Shown here piece after piece: positions 37,417 to 61,822 of a stretch of 64,000 nucleotides of DNA. The notes below the pieces were generated by a model, which was not told where the DNA came from, did no database searches, and saw only the letters and a list, made by a program, of their open reading frames with translations. The DNA lies in contig DAOMZT010000002.1 of NCBI GenBank assembly GCA_035400625.1, forward strand, positions 137,649 to 201,648, given 5' to 3'. How positions within the stretch are numbered: position 1 is the first letter of the stretch; the number at the start of each line of letters is the position of its first letter. Position numbers and translations under genes: made by a program. Origin of the DNA: an archaeon. Lineage in GTDB: Archaea > Iainarchaeota > Iainarchaeia > Iainarchaeales > CSSED10-239.

Positions 37417-37422
37417 AATCTA

Positions 37423-39666: not shown

Positions 39667-39680
39667 TTTTTATCTTTCTA

Positions 39681-41084: not shown

Positions 41085-41108
41085 TTTAATTTGTCACCAT
41101 TTATACAA

Positions 41109-41180
41109 TCACCAAAATAACAATAAAACAATAAACTCAATTATAAGTATGATTATTATTAATTTTAAAGTTAGTTTCAT
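41109..41180 (-). CDS. Possible 23-aa hydrophobic micropeptide (MKLTLKLIIIILIIEFIVLLLFW)
   Basis: An ATG preceded by AGGGGAAATTAC (SD-like) and TATA-like boxes. It is the only ORF in the 288-nt gap between P2 and the 467-aa gene. It is very short, so confidence is low. Confidence 0.25.
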   Translation of the reverse strand: MKLTLKLIIIILIIEFIVLLLFW

Positions 41181-41260
41181 GTAATTTCCCCTATATACTA
41201 TATAATATATTAATTAAATATATTTATATAACTTTTCATAGATAAAAAATGAGATTTTTA
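41181..41260 (-). promoter_or_regulatory. Candidate archaeal promoter (TATA-like boxes) for the distal transcription unit of the cluster
   Basis: The minus strand reads ...GAAAAGTTATATAAATATATTTAATTAATATATTATATAGTATATAGGGGAAATTAC-ATG. TTATATAA and TTATATAG are candidate TATA boxes. This is the largest non-coding gap in the cluster. In such AT-rich DNA these matches are weak evidence. Confidence 0.25.
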
Positions 41261-41372
41261 AGTATAATCATTCGATTGTGCTTAATCTACATGTTGAAAC
41301 TTAAAAAACACAATTTCTTCAACAGATAGATTAAAATGGTCATTGTCCCTTCACTATATTTTATATTTTTAC

Positions 41373-44300: not shown

Positions 44301-47300
44301 TGTTGCATTGGAAGTAACAACTGGAACATATGTGCTCTCAGAATATGATAAAATATTTGTTGAGGCTGTTGCTAAAGATGAATTGTCTTTCTTAAATAAT
44401 TGTGTTCTTAATGTTGGCTGATCAGTTAATGAAAAGAAGTCTATTGGTTTGCCAATTAAATTGTTAACAAAGTAATAACCAATACTTGTGGTCTTTGAAG
44501 ATATGTTAACAGAAGTATTATTATCTATTGTTTGTATGATTGGATTTGTTGATGTTTTATCTTTAAAATAACTGTTTGTAAAAACATAGTTGTTATTTGT
44601 GTTTTGAGTGTCTGTAATTATGTCTCCTGTTCTGTTGGTATCAGAGAACTGTATGAAGCTTAAACTATAATTATAGTCCTTTCCAATATAAAGTATATAA
44701 TCTGAACCAAATTTAGTTAGTTCTGAATTTCGGTCAAATAACTTAATTACATAAGAATAATTGGAATTGTCAAAAGGTATTGCTTCTACTTGGGTTGGTG
44801 CATAGAAATATCCTTCTGGCCTTATTGACCATTCATTCCAGTTTGAAAGGTTTGGAGAAAAGGAAAATGTTTCTAAATCTGAATTTAATGATCTGTAATA
44901 GATTTTGTAATTGTCAATGGTTGTAATTTCGTTTTTGAATTTTACATTTACAGAATATTCTATAATGTTTGCAGTAACATCACTAAAATCAAACTCTAGC
45001 CATTTGTATTTTCCTGCTATGCAGTTGTTAAAAGAATAATCAGATTCAAAGTTTGTAATAAAATAGTTGCTATCAAAAGATTCTAGATCTCCATGATATC
45101 TACAGCCTGTTCTTATCTCTGTGTCTTTTGGAACAAACAAGTCTGTGTTTGTTAAATAAATAAAGTCTGCATTTTCTGTTAGATATCTTCCTGCTTTTAT
45201 AAATGCTTTCTTTATTACGTTTGTTCTGTCTGAGCCAAATACAGTCTTAAATTTTAACTTATATTCTTTTGTTAAATCGTTATTTCCTGAAAAGGTTAAA
45301 TTGTCTATCTTTATTGTGCCTGTGGAATCATAAAGACCTAAAAAGGAGGTGGCTGTTTGAATTTCTGATATAGTAGGGAAGGTTATTTCTTTGTAAGCTA
45401 CCTGTCCAGGAAATAGTGAGATAAGGTCTGTTTGATATAATAGGTCGTCTTTTTCAATAGTCAAATATATTCTTGAACAATCATCACCACAATTAAACAC
45501 AAAGGTTTTGTTTGTATCTTCAGTAACATTTGTAGCAATTACATTTTCTGTAGGTATTTGCTCTCCAGAGACTTCAAAAAAAGAAATGTTATAATCTTGA
45601 TTTGGTGTTATTTTAAGATTAAGGGTTTTAGATTGATTACCTAAAGACACATTTAATTCTAAAACATCATTACTATCAAGCTCTTGTGCTGGCAGAGAAT
45701 CACCATCTGCACTTTCGTTTCTTAATATAGCATAAGCGTAATATTCTCTTTTGCTTTTTACTAAATCAAAATTTGCATCTCCGCTTGAATTTGTAGTTTT
45801 TGGATTTTCTGGATTGTATAGCACGTATTCATCATCTAACTCATAAAATAAATAAACTAATGCATTTGCTCTCTTATAGCCGTTTTTTGTAACATTAACA
45901 TTTATGCTCCCACTATTTAATGAGGACAAATATTCTAAAGGTATTTCTATGGTTGTGTTAGTGTCTGCAGAAAGATTATTGACATCTACTGGTGTTGGTG
46001 GCAAATAGCCATTATCTTCTGTGTTTGATACAATTATTCTATAATTATTATTTGCAACTAGAGCAAATGTTGTTTGGTTCACATCTCTTCTAGTAGTAAT
46101 TAAACTTGAGACATTCTGGTCTCTTTTATAAACTGAGATATTGCCAGTAACTGGAACACTAGTGTTTTGATCTTTTAATTTAACTATTAGATTTGTAAGT
46201 TTTCCTATGGTACAGCCATTACCATTAGGATTAGGGGTAACTAAACCTGTTAATAATGGACTATTACAATCAATTTTTCCATCTTTACAAAAAGGAGCAT
46301 ATATTGGGTTTGAACAGTTAATGTTTGCTAAATCTGATGCTGTAATTAAAGTAATGTTTGCAGTTGTTATGTTATTATTAACAATATTATAAGGCCCTAG
46401 CTTTGGAAGGCTTATATATCCTGTTTTATCTATTGATAAAAGATAATTTGATTGAGGTGCATTAAACTTATATTTACCATAAACATCTGTTGTTCCTGTG
46501 CTATATGTGACATCTGATTCGTTTGTTGGTGTTTGTAAATCATCTACATTATGTAGTCTTAGATTAGCATATGGTACTGCTTGTCCGATTATGTCTTTTA
46601 CAGTAACTTCTAATGTGCCTGTATTTGTATTAACTCTTGTTAGTTCAACTATGTTATCTTCGCTAACATTTCTGTCAGTTATTAGTTCATAATTTGAAGA
46701 TACCACACTTACTAACAAAAAACCACAATAGCCAGGCTGTAAGACATTTGTTCTTCCGTTTGTTACTGTTGTTGTTCTAGGTTCTGGTATTTTTTCAGAA
46801 TTAGAACATTTAAAAGTAACATTAAGATTATCAGTAACAACCACATCATAGCTTTTAAATATTATTTCTCTGCGTCTCTCAGAAGAGGGCCCCTTAAATT
46901 CTCCAGAGGTTGTGTCCATTTCAAGAGTTATTGTTTCTTCTTTTAGTTTTTTATCTAGTTTTATTTGTTTTGTTGTAGGAAAATAATTTTCTTTTGTTGC
47001 TTTTATTTCTAGATCTTTAAATTTTAGATCTTTAAACTCAGTATAGCCAAAGGCATCTGTGCTTTGTGTTATTTCGTTATTTATTGTTACGCTTACTCCA
47101 CCTAATGAAAAGTTCTGTTCATCTACCACATATACTTCTAGTGTTTTTTTGCTTCCACTAAATAATAATATTAAGATAATTATCAAGACAATTACCGCAA
47201 TAATAATAAATATTATTTTTGTAAATTTCTTTTTTGGTTTTTCTGTGGTCTGAGGATTGTTCTGTTCTACTGTTTGTTTAATTTCGTTTATTAGTTTTTC

Positions 47301-47312
47301 TTGTTCGCTCAT
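41373..47312 (-). CDS. Giant membrane-anchored surface protein, paralogue P2 (1979 aa)
   Basis: ATG start. A short N-terminus is followed by a TM helix (IIFIIIAVIVLIIILILLF). CarboxypepD_reg-like segments are present (LEVYVVDEQNFSLGGVSVTI..., GTLEVTVKDIIGQAVPYANLRLH...YGKYKFNAPQSNYLLSIDKTGY). It is collinear with P1. The C-terminal module lies at 41373-42830. Confidence 0.9.
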   Translation of the reverse strand: MSEQEKLINEIKQTVEQNNPQTTEKPKKKFTKIIFIIIAVIVLIIILILLFSGSKKTLEVYVVDEQNFSLGGVSVTINNEITQSTDAFGYTEFKDLKFKDLEIKATKENYFPTTKQIKLDKKLKEETITLEMDTTSGEFKGPSSERRREIIFKSYDVVVTDNLNVTFKCSNSEKIPEPRTTTVTNGRTNVLQPGYCGFLLVSVVSSNYELITDRNVSEDNIVELTRVNTNTGTLEVTVKDIIGQAVPYANLRLHNVDDLQTPTNESDVTYSTGTTDVYGKYKFNAPQSNYLLSIDKTGYISLPKLGPYNIVNNNITTANITLITASDLANINCSNPIYAPFCKDGKIDCNSPLLTGLVTPNPNGNGCTIGKLTNLIVKLKDQNTSVPVTGNISVYKRDQNVSSLITTRRDVNQTTFALVANNNYRIIVSNTEDNGYLPPTPVDVNNLSADTNTTIEIPLEYLSSLNSGSINVNVTKNGYKRANALVYLFYELDDEYVLYNPENPKTTNSSGDANFDLVKSKREYYAYAILRNESADGDSLPAQELDSNDVLELNVSLGNQSKTLNLKITPNQDYNISFFEVSGEQIPTENVIATNVTEDTNKTFVFNCGDDCSRIYLTIEKDDLLYQTDLISLFPGQVAYKEITFPTISEIQTATSFLGLYDSTGTIKIDNLTFSGNNDLTKEYKLKFKTVFGSDRTNVIKKAFIKAGRYLTENADFIYLTNTDLFVPKDTEIRTGCRYHGDLESFDSNYFITNFESDYSFNNCIAGKYKWLEFDFSDVTANIIEYSVNVKFKNEITTIDNYKIYYRSLNSDLETFSFSPNLSNWNEWSIRPEGYFYAPTQVEAIPFDNSNYSYVIKLFDRNSELTKFGSDYILYIGKDYNYSLSFIQFSDTNRTGDIITDTQNTNNNYVFTNSYFKDKTSTNPIIQTIDNNTSVNISSKTTSIGYYFVNNLIGKPIDFFSLTDQPTLRTQLFKKDNSSLATASTNILSYSESTYVPVVTSNATDGKIYVGSNDLNISLKNKTGNYENNIAVKYIVSGQTIATELGEITNNTLNTEIFIPLEDSGKTITFIFTIPGSNLPNNELTFSQVIGTGINIYDLDNKLITNNNRLRYDILLTNIGGKKKATDLVKDYIIKNNTNRVVKLEAVSVSDNEVFLEEIINQNLMAVNNLPKDLNQSNVISAGLHIDPDTDIQDINFSYNNIFTVKNTGEMPDITLYKDTNSSARIKILDIQDFSKFTTTNVNGFYEGEEGAGIELIKEVIDNISISYDLNLLFTDPINYDILDTQIVGEDISNYINFTQAHTNNSSQNRLVGNFNFTFVLKNINFTEIIEKDANINIKIGNQTENFIYEVPIKITLYPKNKSYQLSLPGTHLTIACKGEDNCSSTMVYNIKNNTKSYSLELTGIELLNSNPLAYESASIDIPMPITPQNHIEVPIKIDGNYSNLMTIPDLEETYNKQMNFYLTVNNVQVTEIKPITIIVTYIPETPVTVLNNIGVTGHFCMGVGGQAQGGDYFILGICDTEEQEACSVGESALPKVLYNWGDQTLNWKTLCIDDKEEYDADKTHCDSVQALYSIFTLISSSDYDTSKDYHIYLMYDGIESEDLLEDFRGHYDQFITHSISSAFSEKYLDSDHDKEITITKRTPNNNPTKEVGKYKIVVNDFDPAFTKDLNINLELVQNIPLNKNNLFYYIPIDGDFGVVNDKAHRVGYGSTIVGNYEYSDLLVTEPSATSIKLYGVAENCTSDCSGVTNITANYPSNYLVNWQVTDVLNTNGNLLDLAVDNTSGSEKKNIVFNFTPSRPINVFARVNGIKDKSFNYKLMVNNQFPISTNNLFKWKLFSDSNYNNAMDDIAVFGSHANYLRHELTKDKFGNNLDEKYLLESMIYLPVNVDYLDIKLTLSDLDNNVESRLYGLSSLEGTTELALVSRVPDIYSINQMLDQVKDGNACISNTLSSSKIKWVSDKIKITRSNRNQIETNYNN

Positions 47313-47326
47313 AATTAATCTTTTTT

Positions 47327-49399
47327 CTAGTCACTAAATAATTCTCTTAATGGTACAAATGGGAAATTAAAATTTTTTATAGTACCACCATCAGAAGTAA
47401 TCTTTCCATCTAAAATATATTCTTGGCCATAACAGAACAGATAATCTTCTTGGTTTAGTTCATCAATATCATCTTCTGGAGTATGGCTATAATAAATTAA
47501 ATCTTCTGGTTTTATTTTATATTCATAATTGTTTGTCTTTTGGTTAAAAACACCAGAAATTGGATTTTTATTTGTATAAACAGGTAATTGTTTATTATCT
47601 GTTCTTTTTGTATAATATTTTGATTGATTTAAAGGATTGGAATAATAAACTTTTAAATCTCCAACATTAATTGTTCCGTCAATATTAGAAAAAAGGCTAT
47701 AATCTCTTGTATATCTGTTTTGAGAATCATCAAGAGGCATAACTTCACAATGTGGGCAATAATTAGAGGTTAAATCAAATTCTGAATTTAACATTGAAAT
47801 AACATCTGAGTTTGTTGCTTCTATCCTTATATATTCTTTAATATCAAAATCAACTTTTGTTGGATTAATATAACATCCCTTTATGCTAATATTGTTATTA
47901 AAATATTCATCATCAACTATTGGTGTGCCTGCAGAAATAGTTTTTGGAAGATAAGAGCCATTACTTAAATAGTTTATTTTTATATCTGATAATTTTAGAT
48001 TTAAATAAGGTAATGGCAAGATATTGCCACCATTATCTTCTCCATCATAACCATTATTACTTGTTGCAATAACAGCCAAATCATATTGATGATTAGTAAA
48101 ATTAAAATTAGATGTGATTTCAAAACCATTACTTGATTTATTCTCTAAAAAATCAATAGTAATATCTCCTATTTTTCCTGGTATTCCAAAAGATGCAGAA
48201 TTCTCTGGTGCACAAGTTCCATCTGGACTAATATCAACATCTCCTAATGCACCATTTTTTATATTTAATTTAAATTCGGAGGAATTTAATTTATTTAAAA
48301 AAGTATTAATTTTAATATCACTTATATTCCCGCCATGACCTCCATCTCCATTATGTCCATCTTTGCAATGATCATCATAATTTTCTGCACGTTGCACACC
48401 GCCCGAACCGCCATCTCCTGCGGTTGCATTAAATATTATACTCTTATAATTAGTTATTTTGTCTATATTTGAAATAAATATATTCCCTGCGTTGCCTCCA
48501 TTACCCCCATTATATGTTTCATCTTGTGGGCCTTCATCTTTTTCACTATAGCCTCCTTTTCCGCCTTTCCCTGTTTCTAAACTGATTTTTAAATTATTAT
48601 AATTTTCTATTTGTTTAATACTAAAGTTTAAATCTCCCGAATTATCTCCATCACCCGCACTAAAACCACCATCATGAATAGTTCCTGTATCCCCCCCTGA
48701 AAAAGATTGCCCGTCTCCACCATTCCCTGTTTTTAAATCAATATCAATAAAACCATAATTCTGAATATTATTAATTTTTAAATTTACATATCCACTTCGA
48801 GTTCCATGTTTTGATTCTAAGAATGCATAATAATTATTTCCAAAAGCATCTACTCCATAACCAAAACTTCGATTTCCTATTTTGCCATCATTGCTTTTTA
48901 AATTTAAATTTAGATTTGCATTAGGATAAACAAATATTGATTCTATATTTACATCGTGAGATTTATCAGTTGCTTGCAATGGGGAATATGTTTTAATATC
49001 AAGTTTTTTTTCAGAATTTACAATAATATTTGGTAACGTTATAGATTTTGCATCTTCATATATCGTTATTTTTGAATTATTGTTTGCAATAAGATTTATG
49101 TTTGTATAATCAAAAAAATTAAAATTAAAATAATCTGATTTCAATAAGAAATTATATCCATTTGTATAAAAATTAATTTTATAATCATTACAACTTGTTA
49201 AACTAAATGGAGGTGCTGTGGTTTTTACTAATACAGAATCATTAATATTACAATTACATTCTAATTTATCATGATTACAGTCACAACTTACTTTGCCAGT
49301 CAATGGAGAATCATTATAAATTTCAACATTACAATTAGCAAACACTCCATTTGTTGCCAATATTATTATTAAAAATATAATTGCATATTTTATTTTCAT
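47327..49399 (-). CDS. Secreted Gly-rich solenoid-like repeat protein (690 aa), paralogue of 37423..39666
   Basis: Signal peptide MKIKYAIIFLIIILATNGVFA. Gly-run units at nt ~48300-48745 (TGNGGDGQSFSGGD, GKGGKGGY, NGGNGGNAGN, GDGGSGG, GDGGHGGN) are separated by I/N-rich strands (IENYNNLKISLETG, ITNYKSIIFNATAG). Its stop lies 14 nt before the P2 start. Confidence 0.85.
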   Translation of the reverse strand: MKIKYAIIFLIIILATNGVFANCNVEIYNDSPLTGKVSCDCNHDKLECNCNINDSVLVKTTAPPFSLTSCNDYKINFYTNGYNFLLKSDYFNFNFFDYTNINLIANNNSKITIYEDAKSITLPNIIVNSEKKLDIKTYSPLQATDKSHDVNIESIFVYPNANLNLNLKSNDGKIGNRSFGYGVDAFGNNYYAFLESKHGTRSGYVNLKINNIQNYGFIDIDLKTGNGGDGQSFSGGDTGTIHDGGFSAGDGDNSGDLNFSIKQIENYNNLKISLETGKGGKGGYSEKDEGPQDETYNGGNGGNAGNIFISNIDKITNYKSIIFNATAGDGGSGGVQRAENYDDHCKDGHNGDGGHGGNISDIKINTFLNKLNSSEFKLNIKNGALGDVDISPDGTCAPENSASFGIPGKIGDITIDFLENKSSNGFEITSNFNFTNHQYDLAVIATSNNGYDGEDNGGNILPLPYLNLKLSDIKINYLSNGSYLPKTISAGTPIVDDEYFNNNISIKGCYINPTKVDFDIKEYIRIEATNSDVISMLNSEFDLTSNYCPHCEVMPLDDSQNRYTRDYSLFSNIDGTINVGDLKVYYSNPLNQSKYYTKRTDNKQLPVYTNKNPISGVFNQKTNNYEYKIKPEDLIYYSHTPEDDIDELNQEDYLFCYGQEYILDGKITSDGGTIKNFNFPFVPLRELFSD

Positions 49400-49469
49400 G
49401 TTTTTCTTGCTTTAAATTTATGTTGTTTTTTACATTTTTTATTTTGTGTTATTTTTCATACTTTATATT

Positions 49470-49877
49470 TTATGATAACTTAAATGGAAAAGTTAATGAT
49501 AAGTTCTGATCTGGATTTATCTTTAGATTTGTTTCAATAAAGTAAAATCTAAAGATGTCTTTTGCAGTTAGTGATTGAAATTTGTTTTGATTTAGATTAC
49601 CAATATAAAAAAATACATTTGTTTCTTTTTTAACACACGAAGATGTAAGCTCTATCTCTAAGTCTTCTTGAGATGGCTTAAATACACTTGGAGAGAAGTT
49701 GTCCCCACAAACAATTTTTATTCCATCTGGTTCTTTAATATTTCCAAATATTATTGGATAGGTCTTTATGTTCTCTTTAGGGAAAGCTATCCAATCTGTA
49801 TTTGTATCTTCTGCAAAAACATTATTTAGAAATATAACTAAAGAAAGAACAATTATTAATTTTTGAATATTTTTCAT
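49470..49877 (-). CDS. Small secreted protein (135 aa) equivalent to the C-terminal domain of the 467-aa protein
   Basis: The ORF-track start at 49907 is TTG and overlaps the P3 stop. The ATG at 49877 gives MKNIQKLIIVLSLVIFLNNVFA (a signal peptide) and follows AAGTGAT (SD-like), 10 nt after the P3 stop. YPIIFGNI and FRFYF...LSLTFPFKLS align with the 467-aa C-terminus. Confidence 0.7.
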   Translation of the reverse strand: MKNIQKLIIVLSLVIFLNNVFAEDTNTDWIAFPKENIKTYPIIFGNIKEPDGIKIVCGDNFSPSVFKPSQEDLEIELTSSCVKKETNVFFYIGNLNQNKFQSLTAKDIFRFYFIETNLKINPDQNLSLTFPFKLS

Positions 49878-49887
49878 ATTATCACTT

Positions 49888-52800
49888 TTAGTTTGCAATT
49901 CCTTCAACTAATCCTTCTCCTATAAACATATTGCCATCGGTTTCATATATCGTCTTAGGGTTCCAATAGAATTCAGTTGTCTTTCCATTATCTGAATTAA
50001 CAACACAGACTTCTTTGTTTTCTACTTTTTTAAATAGCTCTTCTAGGCTATATATTTTATTGTTGCTATTTCCTAGTGTTATGGTTGACATATCTTGATT
50101 ATAGTCATTCATAAACAATACGCTTTCTTGATTGCCTCTTGTTTTACTTATTAAATTATATTTTATTGGATTATTATCAGAATCATATGGAGTATAGAAT
50201 ATTGTTCTTAAATAAACTGTTCCTGTTCTTGCTATGTCTTCCCAATCAATAGCATAGGAATTACTCATTCTTTCATCTGGTTCTGATTGCCTATCATAGA
50301 AGTTATTAAACTTAAAGAACACATAGTCTCCCGAAAAGTCTAGATTTCTTGGATTTTCTTTACTTACTCCTGTCCATATACCTAAACTATTTCCTCCAAA
50401 CATTATTTCTCCTGTCTTGTCGTTCTTTAATTGATAGTATGCTGAAAATGGATATAGGTTTGTTTTCTTTACCTTCATAATCACTGGATTTGCAACACTT
50501 GGAGAATAGATCATCTCTATCTGGTTGTCTGTCTTTTCTTTAATAGTAAATAAGTTTCCTCTTGTTTCTACATTACTATTTATTTTAAAGAAGTCTTTAT
50601 TATGTTGTACATTTAGGTATTTCTTTGGATTTGAGCTACCCAAGTATTCTGTTTTTAGCTCTTTATTATCTAAGCGAGTTATTGTAATAACGTCCCCTAT
50701 ATATCCAAGCCCATAGTTTTGTCTTGAATAGCTATTGCTATTTTGCATACCTACAAAGCCATCAAATGGCATTCTGTAGAATACACTATCATTTTCTGGG
50801 CCTCTGATATATGTAAATGTCACAACAACTTTAGCATCTATCTCTCCATTATCTTTTGTTAGTCTCCAATTTTCATTATTATATACTAAATCAATTCTTA
50901 CTCTGTATTTTCCAGGGACTATTATATTTACTCCGTTTTGTGAGTCTGCAGTATATTTTTGAGAAAAGCTTGTGTGATCTCTAAATAATGGTGAATAAAT
51001 TCCGTTTTGATATGCACCTGGAGCACTAAACCAGCTTTCTGCTATTACATTACTTCCTGAAGCCTTACCGCCATGTGCCTTATCAAAGTCATTTAAGAAT
51101 TGTTGATTGTAGTTGTCTGTTATCAGATATGCATCAAATTCTAAATAGTTCTTTAGCTTGTTAATTGTTTCTTTATCCCATGAGTTTACAACATTATTTG
51201 GATAAACATTAGCATCAAACCACATATCTATATAGTCCACACCATTAAACTGTGCTGTTGTTGCTGGAACTTGACAGCCTGTGCCTACAGATGCTTGGTA
51301 TATGCTTGCATTGATGTCTGTTTGGTAATATGTGTAGCTTGGTTCTCCTGAATATGCGTTTGTGCCACTATAGATTACTGTTAATGGTATGTTATTTCCA
51401 ATTATTGGTTGGTCTTCTGTTCCATATGTGAAAGTATAATCTATGGAATCGTCTTCTCCTGTTGGTATCATTATCTGTATATTTTGTTCAGGTGTTGCTG
51501 AAGTTATTGTTGTATCTACCAAGTTACCAACAGAATCATAATTTGAATAATACTTTGGGACATATTCTCCAAATCTTATTCTTATGCTTCCTGTCTGTTG
51601 AGCAGTTGTTCTATTTTGAACAGATACTTGTATTTTTGTTAAATTGCCATCTGTTCCAAATCTTACTTGGTCAATTCCGGTATAGTTTGCTGGAACCTCT
51701 CCTGACCATTGTGGTATTGATGAAGTAAGATTATATGTTCCTGCTGTTGCTTGATCAATCACTTGTGCATTACTTCTTGGGCAGGATATATTATTTTTAT
51801 TTTTTGTAATTAAAGCATCTGCATTGATTAATCTACTTACAATTACTTGAGACAACTGTGTAGCATCACAATAATTTCCATCACTACATTTATCTATATC
51901 TTTATCATCTTTCCAATCCCAATTAAATGAAACATTTGGGAGAGCATCTTTTCCTGTCTTTCCTGACCTGCCAGAATCAGTAATACAATCTTCCAGATCA
52001 ATACTTATTGGCAATCTCTCAGGATATTGTTTAGAGATAAATGCAAACCTGAATTTACCAATCTCTTTAGCACCCTCAAATGCAGGATCTTGTCCTTCAA
52101 TTTGATCATCAAGAGTTGGATAGAAAGTAATTGTTTTATACAAATTATCTCCAAGAGATAATTTATTTACATCATTGACATCACTTATTGTAAAAGACAA
52201 TGGCTTGATACCTGATTGTTCTGGCCAAATAATTTCATCATATTTACAAAAAGAATATGTGTGTGTTGTCAGTTTTATCTTTTTTCTTGGCCAACCACCT
52301 TGACATTCTACACTATATGTTATTTTATCAGACTCTTTTTTTATCTCGCTAAAATCTACATTACAATTTTTTGCCTCTGAAACATAACCATAATTAAAAA
52401 ATTGTTGTTTATGTTCTAATTCATTACAATTTGGCACAGCCATAGATAGTGTTTTATTTTTTACTAATTTGCCGTATCCGTCTCCTTTGCCCTTTAAATA
52501 AGTAACATATCTTGCGCCTGTTATATCAAATACATTTATATATTCTAATTGTTCATCTGTTGAAGAAATTATAATTTCTTTATCACTTTCTATTCTTGGC
52601 ATTGCGTATATTTGATCTACATTTGCAAATTGATATTCTGGAATATATTTATAAACAGAATAAAATGTGTGAGCTACCGCCCCCCCTATAAATGCTAATC
52701 CTACTGCAGTCCATGCTACGATTGATAAAGGGCCCGCTCCCGCCGTTATAATACCAACAAAAGTCGCGGTTTTTGATAACATAGCAAATATTGCAATTAT

Positions 52801-55800
52801 ACCTGTTTCAACAGCTAAAACACTAGTTCCTATTGCTATACTTTGACCAGTATTTATTCCTTTAACATCTGTGTTAACTAAATCATCAAATTTACTCCAT
52901 TTTATATTTTCATATCCTGGATTCTGATAATCATAATTCTTTGACATATATTTACTAAATCCTGTGTCCCCGACTTTCTTCATAGCATAATCCCAAGGGG
53001 TGGTGTTGATGTCGTGGTTTAATAATTTTACTGTCGCACTGTTGTATGCCCCACTGCTATTCTTGTCTACCTCAATAAATGGATCTTCCATGTAAAGGCC
53101 TTTTGATGAATGAACATTTATCTTTAGGTTCTTGTAGATTGTCGTTATCGCCTTGTCGTTGCTGTTTAATATCGCTATTTTTACAGGCACTAGATAACCT
53201 CCAGGAACTTCTGGCTTTTTAATGCCAGCAACAAGAGAACTTTCTCCAAATTTAAATCTTAACTCGTTATCATTAAACCCTTCTAGATTATCATACTTTA
53301 TATTTCCACAACCTTCAAAGGCATTTGGATTTGTTTCAATATCTTCACAGAAGTTTAATCTAAATCTTCCAAGATCTGCACAGTTGTTCTTTACAGTGAG
53401 TTCTTTAACTTCGCCAGTGTTTGTTTCTTTAGTAATAACAAACATATCGTTTATCTTCTTACTTCCGTCATAGAACTCAATACAGTCTTGTATCTTTCTT
53501 ATTGCTATGTTTGTTGTAAATGCAACATCTCTTGTGGTATTTACATATTTTAGACCATCGTTAGTCTTAACTTGCCCATTAATGTAAATCTTTGTTTCTA
53601 CATCCCCAAATTTCTTTTCTTGAGAATAATATGTAAGAACAGCATGATGCCCTCCAGGAGACAAGTTCTTTAATATGGTTGTGTAACTGCCTTCTGAAAG
53701 AGTTATTGTTTTTCCATCAACAGTCAAATTATAACTTCCAAACATATCTTTGGAATTAACAATCTTTGCTCTTATTGTATCTAATGGCAAACTCTGACCT
53801 TCTGTGCCTTTGACTACACAATTGTTTTGTATATCAAAGCTAAAAGATACAGAATCATTACTGCTTACTACTTGCTTCCAAGGGTTGTTTGCACCTTGGA
53901 TTACTAAACAATCATCTTCTTCTACTCCTTCACCAACAGATACCTTTAGGCTTATTGGAATATTAAAAGGATATTCTGCTTGTGAGTTATCTACTGAAAC
54001 ATAACCAATAATGTTACCAGTAATATTTAGGGTTTGAATTAGTTCTTCAGCATCTTGAGAAGTTGCAATCTTTATTCTTAGATTTTCTTCTCCGTTTGCT
54101 GGAATTACAATATTAGCAACCTGACTATTTAGATATTGCTGTAATTTTGGAATATTCAGATAATTAGAATATCTGAAATTAAAGCTATCATCTTTAAATT
54201 GCTTTAATTGTAAAGGATAATCAGTATTATTTATTATTGTTAATACCCTTTCTGTTCCATCTGGATTTGTTTTATTTATATTAATCGTAAATGGAGCCTT
54301 GTCTGTTATCTTTGTGTTGTCCTGTTTAAGGGAAATGATATTTTCTTCAACAGTAAATTCTACAGACTCTGCAAAATATCCACTCTTCTCTAAATTAATG
54401 ATTATTCTTTCGCCTGTTCTTAAAACTGGCATTGGTATTATTGCCTTACCATAATCATTTGTTCTTATTGTTCCACTTGTTATCTTTATCTGTTGGTTGT
54501 TTGCTCTTCTTTGATAGATATTGACAAGAGCACCAGATACTGGCAAGCCTGACTCATCAATTGCAACAACTGTAAGATCAAATGGCTTGTTTGGAACAAT
54601 ATTTTTTGGCTCATAAGTTATAGTAAAAGGATATTGCTGAGACACATTAAAAGTCATAAACTCATTATAAACAACAGATTGATTAGAAATAATCTTGTTT
54701 TGGAATCTGGAAGTTCCAAGAACTGCTGGCTTAATGGTTGTGTTAATTTCTATCTTGTCATAAACGTTTATTTGTGGGATATTTAGATAATCAGAAGTAA
54801 ATGGTATCTTGTTTCTTAACTGGTTATCTGCAGAGCCTGAATCTTCAAACCTTCCACCTGTTATATTATAACTTAAAATATCAATGGCGTTTGCAAACAT
54901 CTCTGTTGTGTTTTCAACATTTGCTATTAATAGTCTATTGTTATTATAAACATTTGATTTTGCATTAGTTAAAACATACTTTAGATTATATGTTTTGTTT
55001 ACTACTAAATTATTAACAGCCTCTAAATCAAAAACAATATCTTCTGAAACATCAACATATTGTCCTGATAAACAAAAAGTTTCAGAACAGATTTCTTCTG
55101 TATCAATATAGTAAACTTTTTGGCTATTAAGATTATCAAGTATTGGTGGAGTGCTTGTAAATACAGAATAATAAATTGGAGCTGCTTGGCCTCTGTTAGC
55201 TTGAACAGTTCCAACAGGAACTAATAGTTCATAAACACCAACAGATGCATTTACAAACTTTGCATCAATTACTTTTGCACGAATATCTGGAGTAACTATT
55301 GTTAAGTTAGTATTACTGTAATAGCTAACATTTGCCTTTGTGTCATACATTGTTCTGATATGGATAATGTCTTCTTCTGCAGTTTCTTTATCTCCTGCCA
55401 AGAACCTAAATCCAACAGTCCCTTCTGTTGGATTAATTAATCTAAACTTAAAATAAAACTTTGAATTTTGAGCCAAATATTCAACTTTCTGGTTTTGCTC
55501 ATTAAACAAACCAACAAAGTCTGCAGTTAGAGTGCTTACTGTTCCCACTCTTATTAGTTTAATGTCTTTTGTTATCGTTTCTCCGCTAATTATTGGTATC
55601 AATTCAGTATAATAATCATAATAGCCTTCTTTTGAGATCTTTGCATAAAGTATCTTGTCTGCTTTTATAGTTTTTGAATATTCTCCGTTCTGTGTTGCTT
55701 GATCGGTTCCAATCTCCTCACCTATTTGGCTATATAGTTTGATGTTTGCAAAGCTTATTGTTTCTTCATTAATATTTTTAATATTAAATCTTATTGTTCC

Positions 55801-57369
55801 AGTTCCAACATTTATTGTCATTGACATGTTTGTGTCTGTTGGCGGAGTGTGAGTGAATTTTTGAGATGAAGAAACAACATTTGCTTTTCTTAGCTTTATG
55901 AAATATTTGCCTTGGGCTATGCTTTCAAAATTAACCTTTCCAAACTCGTCAGTAACCAAAGAATCATATCTGGTATCTTGGAATTCATTATCTCCGTTAT
56001 AGATAATTAATGTTGCGCCAATTACTGGGAGATTTTCTTCATCAAGAACAGTAACATTAATGTCTGAAACATTACTTATGGTTTCTTTTTCTAAATTGAA
56101 AATATAGCTGTTTGCGTTTGGAGTTATATCTTTAGTTGTTGCAAGATAGCCTGTTGCTCTTACTGTTAATGAATAATTTTTTGATTTATCTATTCTAAAA
56201 GAAACGCTTGTTCCTTCATAACTTTTAGTGTCTACTGTCTGCAAACTGCCATTTATGTCAGTAATTAAAAACACTTGTGCTAAAGCACTAGAATTAAAAT
56301 CTACACCTGTATCAGAATCTTTAGCAATTACTGTTATGTCTCTTGTCTCTATGTTTGTTTCAGTATCTCCTGGATTGCCTCCTCCATTAATTGCAGACAT
56401 CTCAACACTCAGTTGTGTTTCCGTGTCTTTTGTTATAGTAAATGTGCTTTCTGCAGATTCATATCTTAAAGAATCATCTGTTGCAATAACCTTGTATTCT
56501 CCAATCTCGATATTTGCAAAAGATTTACCGCCCATTGTTGTTTGGCCTGAAACAACAGGGTTAATTCCATCTTCCATAGCATATATCCTCAAAGTAATTC
56601 CATCAAGATAATTTGTACCACTCTTAACTCTTATTGTTGCTCTTCCAGTTCCTGTTACTGCTGCTTTTGGCGGGACATTAACAACACCTGTTGTTTGGTT
56701 GATTGGAATACCACTGCCAGAATAATTTATTCCGATTGCTGTTGCAACCATGTTTGTACATGAAACTGGAACATCAAAATTAGCAGTACCGTTTGTTACT
56801 GTTGAAGATGTTGGCTCAATTGTTGTTCCATCTTGGCAAGTAATTGTTACATTTAGATTTTCAGAAATTTTCTGACCATTTGCACCAACAAATGTCAAGG
56901 TCTTTGATTGTTTATTTGGTAAATTAAAAATCAATATAGTGAAGTTTTGTCTGGTTTTACTTAAATCAATATCTTCTTCAAAATACTTATAGCCTGCTTT
57001 ATCAACAACAACAGAATAGCTACCATATTTATCTAGTTCTAAAGAAAATTGACCATTATTACCAGTTCTGTAATTTTGAGTAACGTCCTTATCTTTATCT
57101 TTTAATTGAAACTCAAAATTTCTTAAGATTTCTCCACCGTCATCTGCAAGACCAATTGTGAAGAATATTGCTTGTGTTCTTTCTCCAGATAATCCAAATG
57201 GCTTAAATATAAGCAACAACACAACAATTACGAAAATTATAAAAAGAAAAAAAGATGCTAGCGGATGTATTTTATCAATTGGCTTTGTTAACCATTTGAT
57301 TGGTACTCTGTTGTTTATTTTATCTAAAAATTCCTGGTATTTTAAAGCAAATGACATTTTCTTACACAT
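49888..57369 (-). CDS. Giant membrane protein, paralogue P3 (2493 aa) with N-terminal anchor plus an internal TM cluster
   Basis: ATG start. The N-terminal anchor (FLDKINNRVPIKWLTKPIDKIHPLASFFLFIIFVIVVLLLIF) is homologous to that of P1. There are at least 5 CarboxypepD_reg-like segments (e.g. INVTVLDEENLPVIGATLIIYNG...FGKVNFESIAQGKYFIKL; FDLTVVAIDESGLPVSGALVNIY...YGKAIIPMP). An internal hydrophobic block at aa ~1500-1570 corresponds to nt 52650-52870. The C-terminal ~700-aa module (49888-52000) is closest to P4. Confidence 0.9.
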   Translation of the reverse strand: MCKKMSFALKYQEFLDKINNRVPIKWLTKPIDKIHPLASFFLFIIFVIVVLLLIFKPFGLSGERTQAIFFTIGLADDGGEILRNFEFQLKDKDKDVTQNYRTGNNGQFSLELDKYGSYSVVVDKAGYKYFEEDIDLSKTRQNFTILIFNLPNKQSKTLTFVGANGQKISENLNVTITCQDGTTIEPTSSTVTNGTANFDVPVSCTNMVATAIGINYSGSGIPINQTTGVVNVPPKAAVTGTGRATIRVKSGTNYLDGITLRIYAMEDGINPVVSGQTTMGGKSFANIEIGEYKVIATDDSLRYESAESTFTITKDTETQLSVEMSAINGGGNPGDTETNIETRDITVIAKDSDTGVDFNSSALAQVFLITDINGSLQTVDTKSYEGTSVSFRIDKSKNYSLTVRATGYLATTKDITPNANSYIFNLEKETISNVSDINVTVLDEENLPVIGATLIIYNGDNEFQDTRYDSLVTDEFGKVNFESIAQGKYFIKLRKANVVSSSQKFTHTPPTDTNMSMTINVGTGTIRFNIKNINEETISFANIKLYSQIGEEIGTDQATQNGEYSKTIKADKILYAKISKEGYYDYYTELIPIISGETITKDIKLIRVGTVSTLTADFVGLFNEQNQKVEYLAQNSKFYFKFRLINPTEGTVGFRFLAGDKETAEEDIIHIRTMYDTKANVSYYSNTNLTIVTPDIRAKVIDAKFVNASVGVYELLVPVGTVQANRGQAAPIYYSVFTSTPPILDNLNSQKVYYIDTEEICSETFCLSGQYVDVSEDIVFDLEAVNNLVVNKTYNLKYVLTNAKSNVYNNNRLLIANVENTTEMFANAIDILSYNITGGRFEDSGSADNQLRNKIPFTSDYLNIPQINVYDKIEINTTIKPAVLGTSRFQNKIISNQSVVYNEFMTFNVSQQYPFTITYEPKNIVPNKPFDLTVVAIDESGLPVSGALVNIYQRRANNQQIKITSGTIRTNDYGKAIIPMPVLRTGERIIINLEKSGYFAESVEFTVEENIISLKQDNTKITDKAPFTININKTNPDGTERVLTIINNTDYPLQLKQFKDDSFNFRYSNYLNIPKLQQYLNSQVANIVIPANGEENLRIKIATSQDAEELIQTLNITGNIIGYVSVDNSQAEYPFNIPISLKVSVGEGVEEDDCLVIQGANNPWKQVVSSNDSVSFSFDIQNNCVVKGTEGQSLPLDTIRAKIVNSKDMFGSYNLTVDGKTITLSEGSYTTILKNLSPGGHHAVLTYYSQEKKFGDVETKIYINGQVKTNDGLKYVNTTRDVAFTTNIAIRKIQDCIEFYDGSKKINDMFVITKETNTGEVKELTVKNNCADLGRFRLNFCEDIETNPNAFEGCGNIKYDNLEGFNDNELRFKFGESSLVAGIKKPEVPGGYLVPVKIAILNSNDKAITTIYKNLKINVHSSKGLYMEDPFIEVDKNSSGAYNSATVKLLNHDINTTPWDYAMKKVGDTGFSKYMSKNYDYQNPGYENIKWSKFDDLVNTDVKGINTGQSIAIGTSVLAVETGIIAIFAMLSKTATFVGIITAGAGPLSIVAWTAVGLAFIGGAVAHTFYSVYKYIPEYQFANVDQIYAMPRIESDKEIIISSTDEQLEYINVFDITGARYVTYLKGKGDGYGKLVKNKTLSMAVPNCNELEHKQQFFNYGYVSEAKNCNVDFSEIKKESDKITYSVECQGGWPRKKIKLTTHTYSFCKYDEIIWPEQSGIKPLSFTISDVNDVNKLSLGDNLYKTITFYPTLDDQIEGQDPAFEGAKEIGKFRFAFISKQYPERLPISIDLEDCITDSGRSGKTGKDALPNVSFNWDWKDDKDIDKCSDGNYCDATQLSQVIVSRLINADALITKNKNNISCPRSNAQVIDQATAGTYNLTSSIPQWSGEVPANYTGIDQVRFGTDGNLTKIQVSVQNRTTAQQTGSIRIRFGEYVPKYYSNYDSVGNLVDTTITSATPEQNIQIMIPTGEDDSIDYTFTYGTEDQPIIGNNIPLTVIYSGTNAYSGEPSYTYYQTDINASIYQASVGTGCQVPATTAQFNGVDYIDMWFDANVYPNNVVNSWDKETINKLKNYLEFDAYLITDNYNQQFLNDFDKAHGGKASGSNVIAESWFSAPGAYQNGIYSPLFRDHTSFSQKYTADSQNGVNIIVPGKYRVRIDLVYNNENWRLTKDNGEIDAKVVVTFTYIRGPENDSVFYRMPFDGFVGMQNSNSYSRQNYGLGYIGDVITITRLDNKELKTEYLGSSNPKKYLNVQHNKDFFKINSNVETRGNLFTIKEKTDNQIEMIYSPSVANPVIMKVKKTNLYPFSAYYQLKNDKTGEIMFGGNSLGIWTGVSKENPRNLDFSGDYVFFKFNNFYDRQSEPDERMSNSYAIDWEDIARTGTVYLRTIFYTPYDSDNNPIKYNLISKTRGNQESVLFMNDYNQDMSTITLGNSNNKIYSLEELFKKVENKEVCVVNSDNGKTTEFYWNPKTIYETDGNMFIGEGLVEGIAN

Positions 57370-57464
57370 CCTATAAATATATATCTAAAATATATTTATA
57401 TTAAAGAAAATAAGGTATTTAAATGTATCTGTAAAGTTAAAAAGTTAATGAAAAAGAAAAAGAA

Positions 57465-59381
57465 TCATCTACATTTAGTAGATGGCTCATTATAGCAAAA
57501 CTGGTAAGCTGTAGGGACTTTGCCTCTGTCTGGTGTTCCATATAATACTAATCCATAATTAGATGTACATTTAGCAGGAACAACTCTTTTTGCACCACTT
57601 TGTTGTATAATACATACACAACCCCATTGATTTGTAGTTAGATTTGCATTACTACAAGCATCCTTTGTATTGTTTCTTGTAGAATAATATTTGCCAGCGC
57701 CCTCATTTAAATTAGGGACATCTTGTTGTGGTTGTTCATTATCGTTTGGTAATTGTGGTGTGGTTGGCGACCCGCTTGTTCCTGAACTGACATAGCTGGT
57801 CAAATCTATATCTTCATAATTTAAATGATAGCCATTATAACAGTTCTTTATTACTTCACATCTAGAATCTAAACCAGGTCTGCAAAAATAATTTAGAACT
57901 TTTCTGTTTAATTCACAATGACTGTAACTTAAAATCTCATCATTAGTTAGAATAAAGATGTTTGCATAAGCGATATTTAGTTTCTTATCTGATTTTTGTA
58001 AAAACACAACTACAAATTTCTTGTAAGGACTGTTTGGCTCAATTTTAAACTGAACTAAATTGCCATTTAATTTAAATTTTATTTTGTCCATTTTTGGTTG
58101 AGTTAATTTATAATTTATTACTGTTTCTCTAGTCTCTGGCAAGAACAATTCATAATCCCCTAAATCATACTCATAAAGACCAGGTGCATTATTTTTAACT
58201 TCTTTTTGATTTACTTCGCATGCATTAACACAAGAATTATTTACTGATTTTTTTGAAGTCGCATCTAATTCTCCATTAATCAAATTTAAGTTTGCAAATG
58301 TTATAGACATTGGGAAATATTTAATTTCAGAATCTGCTGTTTTTCGGTATTTACAATTACAAGAAACATTATAATAAGGAATTACTTCTGTAGTTTCTCC
58401 TTGATAGTAAGAGTATTCTGAATTGTTTGTACTTACAAATTTATTGATTTCTGGAATTATGTTATCATAATTTTCTTCATTTGCTATTAACATATAAATA
58501 TTTTCATTAAAATTAAAACCATTTTCATCTAATTGCATTTCTATTTTTATATCTCTACCTATATATGCGGTTAAAAGTTCTGAATTGATTACAAAATGAG
58601 GAACCTCTATATTTGTTTTATCTACATACTTGATTGGGAAAACACTTGTGCCTGTTTCTGAATTAACTGCAACAAATCCAACCTTTTCAATTAAACTTGG
58701 AGCTAATACTGCATCTGAAATTGTATTGCTATTGTCAAGTGTTTCTTCTGTAGTATTTTCTCTCGTAGTATCTACAGGTGTTTCTTCTATATCTGGTGTT
58801 CTCAAATCACAAATTGCTTTTCTTAATCTGTTTGTTTCTAAAGGTTTTGAAAATGGATATGGGTTTGGTTCAATAGCATGACCTGATTTTTGATCTTTAT
58901 AACAAACATAATAACCTGTTTTGTCATCTGTACATTTGTAAGTGAATGGATAACCACTAACTTTAATAAAACCTACATCAATACAATCTTGGGTAAAATA
59001 ATCTACTCTCGTATAATTTACAGGCCCCCTACTATTATTGGTTGTGTTATTGGTTGTGTTATTGACTCGTGGGGTGTTTCTATAGTTTGTTTCTGTTCTT
59101 TTATCTCCTTCAACTACATAGCATTGTGATGTTGTTTCTTCGCAAGCAATTATTTTCCTATTATCAAGACCCCTATATACCATACTTGCTGCATATTTTT
59201 GAGCAGGATCGAATTTATCCCATTCATAAAAAGCAGTTTGGCCTGAAAACCATGGTGCACCGCCCATTATATTTCCAAAATTATCTGCTTGCAAATATCC
59301 TGGTGACCATGCAAAAGTGAATTGCAAACAAAATATAAATATTAAGCTTATAGCAACAATTGTTGTTTTTTTAAATCTCAT
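57465..59381 (-). CDS. Secreted Cys-rich protein (638 aa), function unknown
   Basis: Signal peptide MRFKKTTIVAISLIFIFCLQFTFA. Many Cys residues are clustered at both ends. An internal region (APGLYEYDL...IKFKLNGNLVQFKI...FVVVFLQKSDKKLNI) resembles the 775-aa neighbour. Confidence 0.8.
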   Translation of the reverse strand: MRFKKTTIVAISLIFIFCLQFTFAWSPGYLQADNFGNIMGGAPWFSGQTAFYEWDKFDPAQKYAASMVYRGLDNRKIIACEETTSQCYVVEGDKRTETNYRNTPRVNNTTNNTTNNSRGPVNYTRVDYFTQDCIDVGFIKVSGYPFTYKCTDDKTGYYVCYKDQKSGHAIEPNPYPFSKPLETNRLRKAICDLRTPDIEETPVDTTRENTTEETLDNSNTISDAVLAPSLIEKVGFVAVNSETGTSVFPIKYVDKTNIEVPHFVINSELLTAYIGRDIKIEMQLDENGFNFNENIYMLIANEENYDNIIPEINKFVSTNNSEYSYYQGETTEVIPYYNVSCNCKYRKTADSEIKYFPMSITFANLNLINGELDATSKKSVNNSCVNACEVNQKEVKNNAPGLYEYDLGDYELFLPETRETVINYKLTQPKMDKIKFKLNGNLVQFKIEPNSPYKKFVVVFLQKSDKKLNIAYANIFILTNDEILSYSHCELNRKVLNYFCRPGLDSRCEVIKNCYNGYHLNYEDIDLTSYVSSGTSGSPTTPQLPNDNEQPQQDVPNLNEGAGKYYSTRNNTKDACSNANLTTNQWGCVCIIQQSGAKRVVPAKCTSNYGLVLYGTPDRGKVPTAYQFCYNEPSTKCR

Positions 59382-59398
59382 TATTTTTCCCTTTTTTA

Positions 59399-61726: not shown

Positions 61727-61822
61727 AGTTGTTTCCTTTTTTCAGTTATTTTATTATTCATAAAATTAGTAAACATAAATATTTATTTACTTATCTGTTA
61801 AGAAGAAAAGAAAAAGAAGAAT

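Follow-up and report, generated by a model that had tools for sequence, protein, structure and literature searches.

DPANN archaea have tiny genomes, in which uncharacterised giant surface proteins are common. What such proteins are built from, and whether they share a part that points to their role, are the questions raised by the 64,000-nucleotide (nt) stretch analysed here (hereafter the window, meaning the whole stretch: positions 137,649 to 201,648 of contig DAOMZT010000002.1, GenBank assembly GCA_035400625.1), where a small genome devotes about 33 kb to an unbroken run of nine secreted or anchored proteins. A preliminary description of the window had proposed that four giant proteins in this run, P1 to P4, end in a common C-terminal module of no recognised family. 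We found the shared C-terminal region to be a genuine protein domain family, and a new one within a familiar kind of protein, the giant surface protein with an array of immunoglobulin (Ig)-like domains. All genes and segments for which window coordinates are given below lie on the reverse strand, and coordinates are window positions unless another locus is named. P1 occupies 30880-37416 (2178 amino acids, aa), P2 41373-47312 (1979 aa) and P3 49888-57369 (2493 aa); P4 extends from 61823 to beyond 64000, with 724 aa visible and no upstream stop inside the window.

A shared C-terminal module in P1 to P4

Alignment with MAFFT recovered the five motifs read by eye in the preliminary description, in the same order in all four C-termini and with 36 invariant columns (C.T..G...W...CD..Q; YL..D....DF; (P)G.Y; Y..P.DG..G...R..YG; and a terminal C). 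Motif 1 starts at aa 1686 of P1, aa 1517 of P2, aa 1793 of P3 and aa 31 of the visible part of P4, where it begins near 63907; these positions agree with the nucleotide boundaries originally proposed for the module. The similarity was significant in formal comparisons. When every pair was searched alone, BLASTP returned E=0 for P1/P2 over the full length (30% identity) and E 3.5e-50 for P3/P4 over 776 columns (P3 aa 1767-2474). Across these pairs, E values were 2e-7 for the P1/P3 C-termini, 1.2e-7 for P1/P4 and 3.6e-4 for P2/P4. Profile-profile comparison with hhalign matched the core of the P1/P2 clade to that of the P3/P4 clade over 361 columns (99.5% probability, E 1.5e-22), and the motif-1 subdomain of the short profile to that of the long profile (94.9%, E 4.2e-8). 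Both alignment and structural modelling support the proposed division into two subfamilies of about 500 aa (P1/P2) and about 700 aa (P3/P4), and the short and long forms differ by a single insertion: P3 and P4 alone carry about 200 extra aa between motifs 1 and 2.

An exhaustive profile search over 1.84 billion cluster representatives (clusters at 50% identity) recovered a large family of module relatives, with 730 representatives at E <= 1e-3, 615 at E <= 1e-10 and 447 at E <= 1e-30. By comparison, a word-indexed search found only three relatives of the P3 module and one of the P1 module and thus under-reports the family, and a single-protein genome scan led to one MAG (metagenome-assembled genome) locus. 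Detailed counts below refer to 160 sequences, and the top 150 of the 730 matches were looked at. Approximate typing assigned about 119 of the 160 modules to the long type. All members that carry a phylum label are annotated as Candidatus Diapherotrites archaeon, a lineage that we take to be the Iainarchaeota of GTDB, and the family thus appears specific to this phylum as far as labelled sequences show. Their product names in public records ("hypothetical protein", "carboxypeptidase-like regulatory domain-containing protein" and "SpaA isopeptide-forming pilin-related protein") are uninformative on the module, because they reflect the N-terminal domains only.

A similarity of this kind could be a matter of composition, the genome having about 30% guanine plus cytosine (GC) and the proteins being rich in Asn, Ser, Thr, Ile and Lys, or it could reflect recent duplication only, so that there would be no real module. 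We consider this almost certainly wrong: besides the hhalign match between the subfamilies (E 1.5e-22) and the 447 cluster representatives at E <= 1e-30, columns stay invariant below 20% overall identity and the AlphaFold model of the region is confident. The profile search, column conservation and hhalign refute it.

One part of the original claim did not hold, namely that all four proteins are giants. Close counterparts of three of them occur in the Candidatus Diapherotrites MAG GCA_035451465.1 (hereafter L003), where P3 is 90%, P2 98% and P4 97% identical. The P4 ortholog in this MAG is a protein of 978 aa with a signal peptide, and the 97% identity extends over all 724 visible residues of P4, which correspond to its residues 255-978. 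Because this ortholog has 978 aa and the closest cluster representatives of P4 have 963-1001 aa, P4 is very probably a secreted protein of about 978 aa and not a giant, a length deduced from its relatives.

For P1 to P3, homology also extends to the N-terminal regions, for example between P1 aa 105-757 and P3 aa 3-644 (BLASTP, E 2e-20), and 40 full-length family members could be aligned along their whole length. In a fast-mode MAFFT alignment of 41 proteins, these 40 members were 0.27-0.36 identical to P3 over the module, compared with 0.21-0.29 over the N-terminal 1400 aa and 0.08-0.16 over aa 1400-1800. Because the N-terminal regions are homologous as well, the module of P1 to P3 is, judging by these alignments, the best-conserved portion of a full-length family and not a shuffled domain. 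It still deserves the name of module, because it also occurs alone in the P4 type of about 980 aa.

Anatomy, predicted structure and relatives of the module

In P3 the module covers aa 1767-2493 (49888..52071, stop codon included), as delimited by BLASTP against P4 and by profile matches in orthologs, which begin at about aa 1759-1764. It starts with the motif-1 subdomain (aa 1793-1876, 51742..51993), which consists of a Cys-rich loop region and a long helix and holds C1795, C1828, C1834-D-A-T-Q1838 and C1863-P; its motif-1 columns are conserved in 96-119 of the approximately 108-120 family sequences occupied at these positions. The insert of the long form is a predicted Ig-like beta-sandwich (aa 1879-2023, 51301..51735), recognised by its predicted strands and gapped in P1 and P2, and it is little conserved across the family (0.15 identity). 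Motifs 2 to 5 lie in a beta-rich core of about 400 aa (aa ~2066-2477, 49939..51174), defined by hhalign, conservation in the 160 sequences and the model. Here D2085, F2095, G2153, Y2198, P2201, R2216, Y2219, G2220, G2271, W2332 and C2455 are invariant or nearly so, D2359 is kept in 151 of 158 sequences, and the loop Y..P.DG..G / R..YG is invariant. The short-type modules span aa ~1662-2178 of P1 (30880..32433; BLASTP, MAFFT, hhalign and AlphaFold2) and aa ~1494-1979 of P2 (41373..42833; BLASTP and MAFFT).

The AlphaFold2 model of the P3 module, computed from a 46-sequence alignment, reached a pLDDT (predicted local distance difference test) of 85.1 and a pTM (predicted template modelling score) of 0.74, with most core blocks above pLDDT 90. 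It shows, in order, the Cys loop region, helices (residues 70-90 and 101-109), an eight- to nine-stranded beta-sandwich (113-257), a mixed alpha/beta part (280-365) and a C-terminal part with some 25 strands up to residue 703. The model of the insert-less P1 module (pLDDT 69.4, pTM 0.77) has the same order of secondary structure as the P3 core. The module is thus predicted to consist of a Cys cap, probably stapled by disulfides, whose long helix starts at C-D-x-x-Q, an optional Ig-like insert and the beta-rich core.

The description of the module as unrecognised was borne out by sequence searches. Neither Pfam-A (2025 copy) nor NCBIfam 20.0 had a match on the four modules at E <= 0.1; Pfam matches on 46 members were inconsistent (five unrelated single-member matches, E > 2e-4); PHROGs had none on the modules; and PDB sequence profiles gave at best E=1 (A1) or no match (A3). 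Literature searches found no description of the module family. It therefore lies outside Pfam-A and NCBIfam, in which it would make one new entry or two to three (cap, insert and core). It resembles the archaeal surface domains that Pfam lists as domains of unknown function (DUFs) in being conserved, lineage-restricted, extracellular and defined by sequence only, and differs from them in being absent from both databases.

Structural comparison of the models gave a similar picture. Foldseek matched the P3 model to PDB entries only locally, over 120-180 columns, with a best E of 3e-4 and a template modelling (TM) score normalised to the query of at most 0.13. The matches were Ig-like domains of the adhesins CNM, Bbp, SdrG and ClfB, of glycoside hydrolase family 2 (GH2) enzymes and of PAD4, and carbohydrate-binding modules (CBMs); the N2 domain of CNM (7lgr) was matched at E 3e-4 with a TM score (target) of 0.48 and without a sequence match in the module. 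The insert-less P1 model had no PDB match (best E 0.43, probability 0.03). Foldseek output gave the matches without their query range, and assignment to the insert was made by comparison with the P1 model. Because the P1 model was unmatched, the PDB matches are most simply assigned to the generic Ig-like insert, and the predicted core would be without a detectable solved relative. A viral or phage relation was also considered and set aside: in addition to the empty PHROGs result, BFVD gave only multi-beta-sandwich tail or CBM proteins with low TM scores (<= 0.14).

These results bear on the possibility that the core is an extracellular enzyme, a new glycan- or protein-degrading catalytic domain directed against the surface of a host or substrate. 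Its loops do carry invariant polar residues (D2085, R2216, Y2198 and Y2219, plus D2359 in 151 of 158 sequences), and giant proteins from further microbes that are ultra-small or predatory have been connected with cell-wall degradation, according to the title of bioRxiv 10.1101/2023.11.21.568195. Against this stand the lack of an enzyme family in Pfam or NCBIfam, the lack of an enzyme fold in the PDB for the core, and the absence of conserved Glu, His, Ser and Lys, and we regard a catalytic role as improbable.

Cysteine pattern and cell location

Seven Cys columns are conserved family-wide in the 160 sequences, at positions 1795, 1828, 1834, 1863, 2032, 2342 and 2455 in P3 numbering, and most members have a Cys within the last 12 residues. 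Presence of a Cys in column 2342 goes with presence of the tail Cys (r=0.72), the two being absent from P3 and present in P4. Furthermore, in A775, a distantly related accessory protein of the array (59399-61726), both Cys equivalent to 1828 and 1834 have been replaced together, and its homologs retain both. Because they are lost in pairs, the conserved Cys are read as disulfide partners.

P1 to P3 each have a single strong N-terminal hydrophobic anchor with a Lys/Arg-rich segment ahead of it; in P3 this membrane anchor spans aa 31-63 (57181..57279), with a Kyte-Doolittle mean of 3.4. Proteins of the P4 type carry signal peptides. N-x-S/T sequons number 1.4-2.7 per 100 aa in module proteins versus 0-0.4 in six of the eight cytoplasmic window proteins compared, the exceptions being alanyl-tRNA synthetase (AlaRS, 1.4) and a phospholipase D (PLD) protein (2.2). 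Taken together, anchors, signal peptides, a composition rich in Asn, Ser, Thr and sequons, conserved Cys and paired Cys loss support the extracellular, disulfide-stabilised fold suggested in the preliminary description, and the module is probably exposed outside the cell and disulfide-bonded. Sortase or archaeosortase signals (LPXTG, PGF-CTERM) were not seen at the C-termini of P1 to P4, which lack a hydrophobic segment and end in polar sequence.

The invariant C-D-A-T-Q of motif 1 could be read differently, as an internal Cys-Gln thioester that would make the module a covalent adhesin, comparable to CGEQ in alpha-2-macroglobulin/C3 or to the thioester domains of adhesins from Gram-positive bacteria. 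Of 119 sequences, 118-119 have C1834, D1835 and Q1838, C[DN][ASQ].Q occurs in 148 of 160 modules, and weak, sub-threshold MG3/MG4 (macroglobulin) matches exist in the N-terminal parts. The proteins resemble alpha-2-macroglobulin and complement in having N-anchored MG-like arrays, a variable region that precedes a conserved C-terminal part, and a short invariant Cys...Gln motif. The motif here is C-D-A-T-Q and not C-x-E-Q, with a spacing of i/i+4 instead of the i/i+3 of CxEQ. Its D..Q falls at the start of a predicted helix (N-cap and N3; residues 69-72, with the helix from 70), a position where such a pair can form a helix-capping box. Moreover, A775 keeps D..Q and has lost this Cys together with one just upstream, as a disulfide pair would, so that the Cys behaves as a half-disulfide; the predicted module is mostly beta, with no alpha/alpha toroid or other helical thioester domain (TED); and no A2M/C3 TED or adhesin thioester domain appeared among the Foldseek matches. 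Given the spacing, the helix-cap position, the paired Cys loss and the absence of a TED fold, we rejected the thioester reading, which is very unlikely.

Architecture of the giants and a hypervariable cassette

Full-length family members are mostly 2200-2800 aa long. An N-terminal hydrophobic anchor is present in 99 of 103 of them, and at least 59 of the 103 also have a second hydrophobic segment, situated 130-250 aa before the module. The module is terminal, with a median of 5 and a maximum of 36 residues between its end and the C-terminus (160 sequences). The recognisable Pfam domains are N-terminal: PF13620 (CarboxypepD_reg) scored 67.5, 42.7 and 30.5 bits in P1, P3 and P2, respectively, against a cutoff of 32.3, and SpaA prealbumin-like domains (PF17802) were also found there, together with weak, sub-threshold bMG3/MG4 matches (E 0.04-0.07). 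A giant member would accordingly have a Lys/Arg-rich N-terminus in the cytoplasm and a single strong transmembrane anchor, followed by about 1400 aa of prealbumin/Ig-like beta-sandwich domains, a hypervariable stretch often holding a hydrophobic hairpin, and the module last.

Two further observations concern the N-terminus. A conserved juxtamembrane motif, roughly Y..LE..WY..LDK.....PIY..IDPIDK..PSF and then the transmembrane helix, precedes the anchor in P1 (aa ~100-170), P3 (aa 5-63) and the giants of two other loci (L005 and L006), without a Pfam match; it may be a targeting or assembly signal. The listed ATG of P3 (57369, MCKKMSF...) lies four codons 5' of the start in the 90%-identical ortholog. 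Because that ortholog begins MSFALKYQ..., the true start of P3 is probably at 57357.

Directly upstream of the P3 module lies a hypervariable cassette (aa ~1478-1712, 52234..52938), delimited by alignment with the L003 ortholog. It contains a hydrophobic hairpin (aa 1510-1566, 52672-52842), whose turn P..GW is loosely conserved, and a four-Cys domain. At the DNA level the cassette is 35-59% identical between P3 and this ortholog, and the rest is mostly 94-100% (90% in the first 150 nt); the protein is 21-37% identical in the cassette and about 90-100% per 100-aa block elsewhere. Its borders are sharp, at TTPWDYAMK and CKY.E..WPEQSGIKPLSF. The same stretch is also the least conserved in comparison with the L002 locus (17-37%) and across the 40 family members. 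A second copy of the cassette was absent from the window and from L002 and L003 by tblastn, and the nearest allele among the cluster representatives is 35% identical. A diversity-generating retroelement (DGR) was rejected as the source of variation: no reverse-transcriptase domain was present among the window proteins scanned, no template copy was found, and divergence over approximately 700 bp is not adenine-specific. A silent-cassette system was likewise not found by tblastn in the window or in L002 and L003. From these alignments, the divergence looks like allelic replacement by recombination rather than the work of a DGR or silent cassettes.

Stand-alone, split and co-encoded genes

The C-terminal unit occurs in several formats. 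It is fused to a giant N-terminal array in P3, stands alone with an N-terminal hydrophobic hairpin in P0011 and P0014, and, in P4 and P0015-P0021, stands alone behind a signal peptide and a Gly-rich amphipathic helix. A hydrophobic segment, linker and module also exist as a gene of about 980-1050 aa adjoining a gene for the N-terminal part alone, and P4 belongs to this type. In L003, a 1553-aa gene within 1860-9884, just upstream of the 978-aa P4 ortholog, is similar only to the N-terminal 1340 aa of P3, and L005 has a comparable pair of 1348 aa and 1047 aa. Judged by their similarity to P3, each pair looks like a giant of the P3 type divided at its variable region. The existence of stand-alone and split genes suggests that this unit of hydrophobic segment, linker and module works independently.

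In the window, the array (30880..64000), recognised from the table of open reading frames (ORFs) and from N-terminal hydrophobic segments, is co-directional and transcribed in the order P4, A775, A638, P3, A690, P2, A467, A747 and P1. Besides A775, its accessory proteins are A638 (57465-59381), A690 (47327-49399), A467 (39681-41084) and A747 (37423-39666), and all five have an N-terminal hydrophobic signal-like segment. A775 matches at 100% identity a "hypothetical protein [archaeon]" from an 813-kb MAG contig; in L003, the end of a 2353-aa giant shares 29% identity with the C-terminal half of A775. A775 has a motif-1-like stretch (C..P.G..G.TG...W-like...DYG..Y.DQDQL) and a C-terminal C...FWLNPE. 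As a full divergent copy of the module it was rejected, only the motif-1 part being supported (hhalign 59%, E 9e-5). A775 and A638 are missing between the P4 and P3 orthologs in L003, which indicates a strain-level rearrangement.

A Gly-rich secreted protein with GGNGG repeats lies directly upstream of every P1/P2-type giant seen, in the window (A690 and A747, 6-14 nt from the giant), L001 (3301-5676), L002 (12634-14754) and L003 (18460-20838). The C-terminal part of these proteins is conserved and contains Cys, and no Pfam family matched A690 or A747. Compared with their L003 orthologs, A690 reaches only 70% identity and its neighbour P2 98%. No enzyme or secretion genes were linked to module-bearing giants in three distant loci, and such giants also form tandem arrays in distant MAGs.

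One reading of this organisation is that the giants form the canopy of the Diapherotrites envelope as a lattice protein akin to a surface (S)-layer, in which the module would make the lattice or self-assembly contacts. Like archaeal S-layer glycoproteins, they are membrane-anchored, rich in Asn, Ser and Thr, rich in sequons and built from beta-sandwich arrays; Ig-like arrays are known from Haloferax csg and the Nitrosopumilus S-layer protein (SLP). Phylum-wide conservation of the module would fit a self-contact surface, and the absence of linked enzymes is also consistent with a structural protein. However, an S-layer would be expected from one or two dominant genes, not from four or more divergent tandem paralogs (20-30% identity); the anchor is N-terminal, with no C-terminal transmembrane segment or PGF-CTERM-type end; 2000-2500 aa exceeds the usual S-layer size range; and a strain-specific, hypervariable cassette is more typical of interaction proteins. 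Solved S-layer proteins gave no sequence or fold match. We therefore consider a lattice role a minority possibility, less likely than a role in binding or assembly.

Possible role of the module

We propose that the module is a putative non-enzymatic binding or assembly ectodomain, a reading to which we give about an even chance. It is suggested by the module having the highest conservation in the protein, and by the linkage pattern, in which enzymes and secretion genes are lacking and secreted proteins are consistently co-encoded. That the domain would be non-enzymatic is argued from the invariant polar residues, which are only Asp, Arg, Tyr and Asn, with no conserved His, Glu, Ser or Lys set, and from the lack of a matching enzyme family or fold. 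The module would then engage a partner common to the whole phylum, for which candidates are a glycan, one of the co-encoded secreted proteins and the module itself. Strain-level specificity, or evasion, would be carried by the adjoining hypervariable cassette.

Several points weigh against this proposal. It is argued largely by exclusion, and the invariant Asp/Arg/Tyr set could be catalytic, as some polysaccharide lyases use such a constellation. In addition, the detailed view of the family is limited to the top 150 of 730 matches, the confidence of the P1 model is only moderate (pLDDT 69), and the membrane topology of the cassette hairpin comes from hydropathy alone.

A more specific and rather unlikely version is that the proteins are a contact device of these DPANN archaea. 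The strain-specific cassette, with its hairpin and four-Cys domain, would recognise the envelope of another cell or insert into it. The invariant head, whose fold has no known relative, would then bind firmly to a conserved partner, and the cells would become attached to each other or joined by a cytoplasmic bridge. If true, the family would offer the first access at the molecular level to the interactions of Diapherotrites with other cells; we know of no cultured representative of the lineage.

The binding or assembly proposal can be set beside known giant adhesins. Apilactobacillus kunkeei has tandem Giant1-5 genes that are reported to diversify by short intragenic recombination (PMC12863079), much as the P3 cassette appears to do. 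As in Giant1-5 and the SpaA-type and MSCRAMM (microbial surface components recognising adhesive matrix molecules) adhesins, consecutive genes in a small genome encode very large extracellular proteins; the combination of a long beta-sandwich array with a distinct terminal globular region is that of fibrillar giant adhesins, and the insert locally resembles the Ig-like domains of the MSCRAMM-type proteins CNM, Bbp, SdrG and ClfB. Unlike Gram-positive giant adhesins, the proteins are archaeal and have an N-terminal transmembrane anchor and no LPXTG/sortase signal. Their conserved end domain sits at the C-terminus and does not form a beta-solenoid. For the core of this domain neither a sequence relative nor a fold relative was detected, and the gene can optionally be split in two.

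The module thus represents a large, previously undescribed family that comprises at least 730 clusters (50% identity), is apparently confined to one phylum and has a confident predicted structure with no known relative. It could serve as a marker for these surface proteins in metagenomes, and two versions, the short form of about 500 aa and the P4 type of 978 aa, are of a size that suits structural and binding work. An invariant head beside a strain-specific cassette also offers a concrete hypothesis on surface recognition.

Other features of the window

The window has a GC content of about 30%, and its housekeeping genes encode histidyl-, alanyl- and prolyl-tRNA synthetases (HisRS, AlaRS and ProRS), an ATP-dependent DNA ligase, Trm5/TYW2, a KaiC-like ATPase and four tRNAs. 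No further ORF in the window carries the module according to a family hidden Markov model (HMM; 1176 positions including insert columns), and BLASTP likewise found it absent from the largest protein of the window (355-10290, 3311 aa). That protein has 78 Cys in a regular repeating pattern, hydrophobic segments at both the N-terminus and the C-terminus (aa 3270-3298) and only a weak HOCHOB match in Pfam; its C-terminal segment therefore suggests an anchoring opposite to that of P1 to P3. The AlaRS ORF (24637-26406) encodes 589 aa with the catalytic domain and SAD, which is short for an AlaRS, and may represent a split or truncated version of the kind reported from some DPANN archaea.

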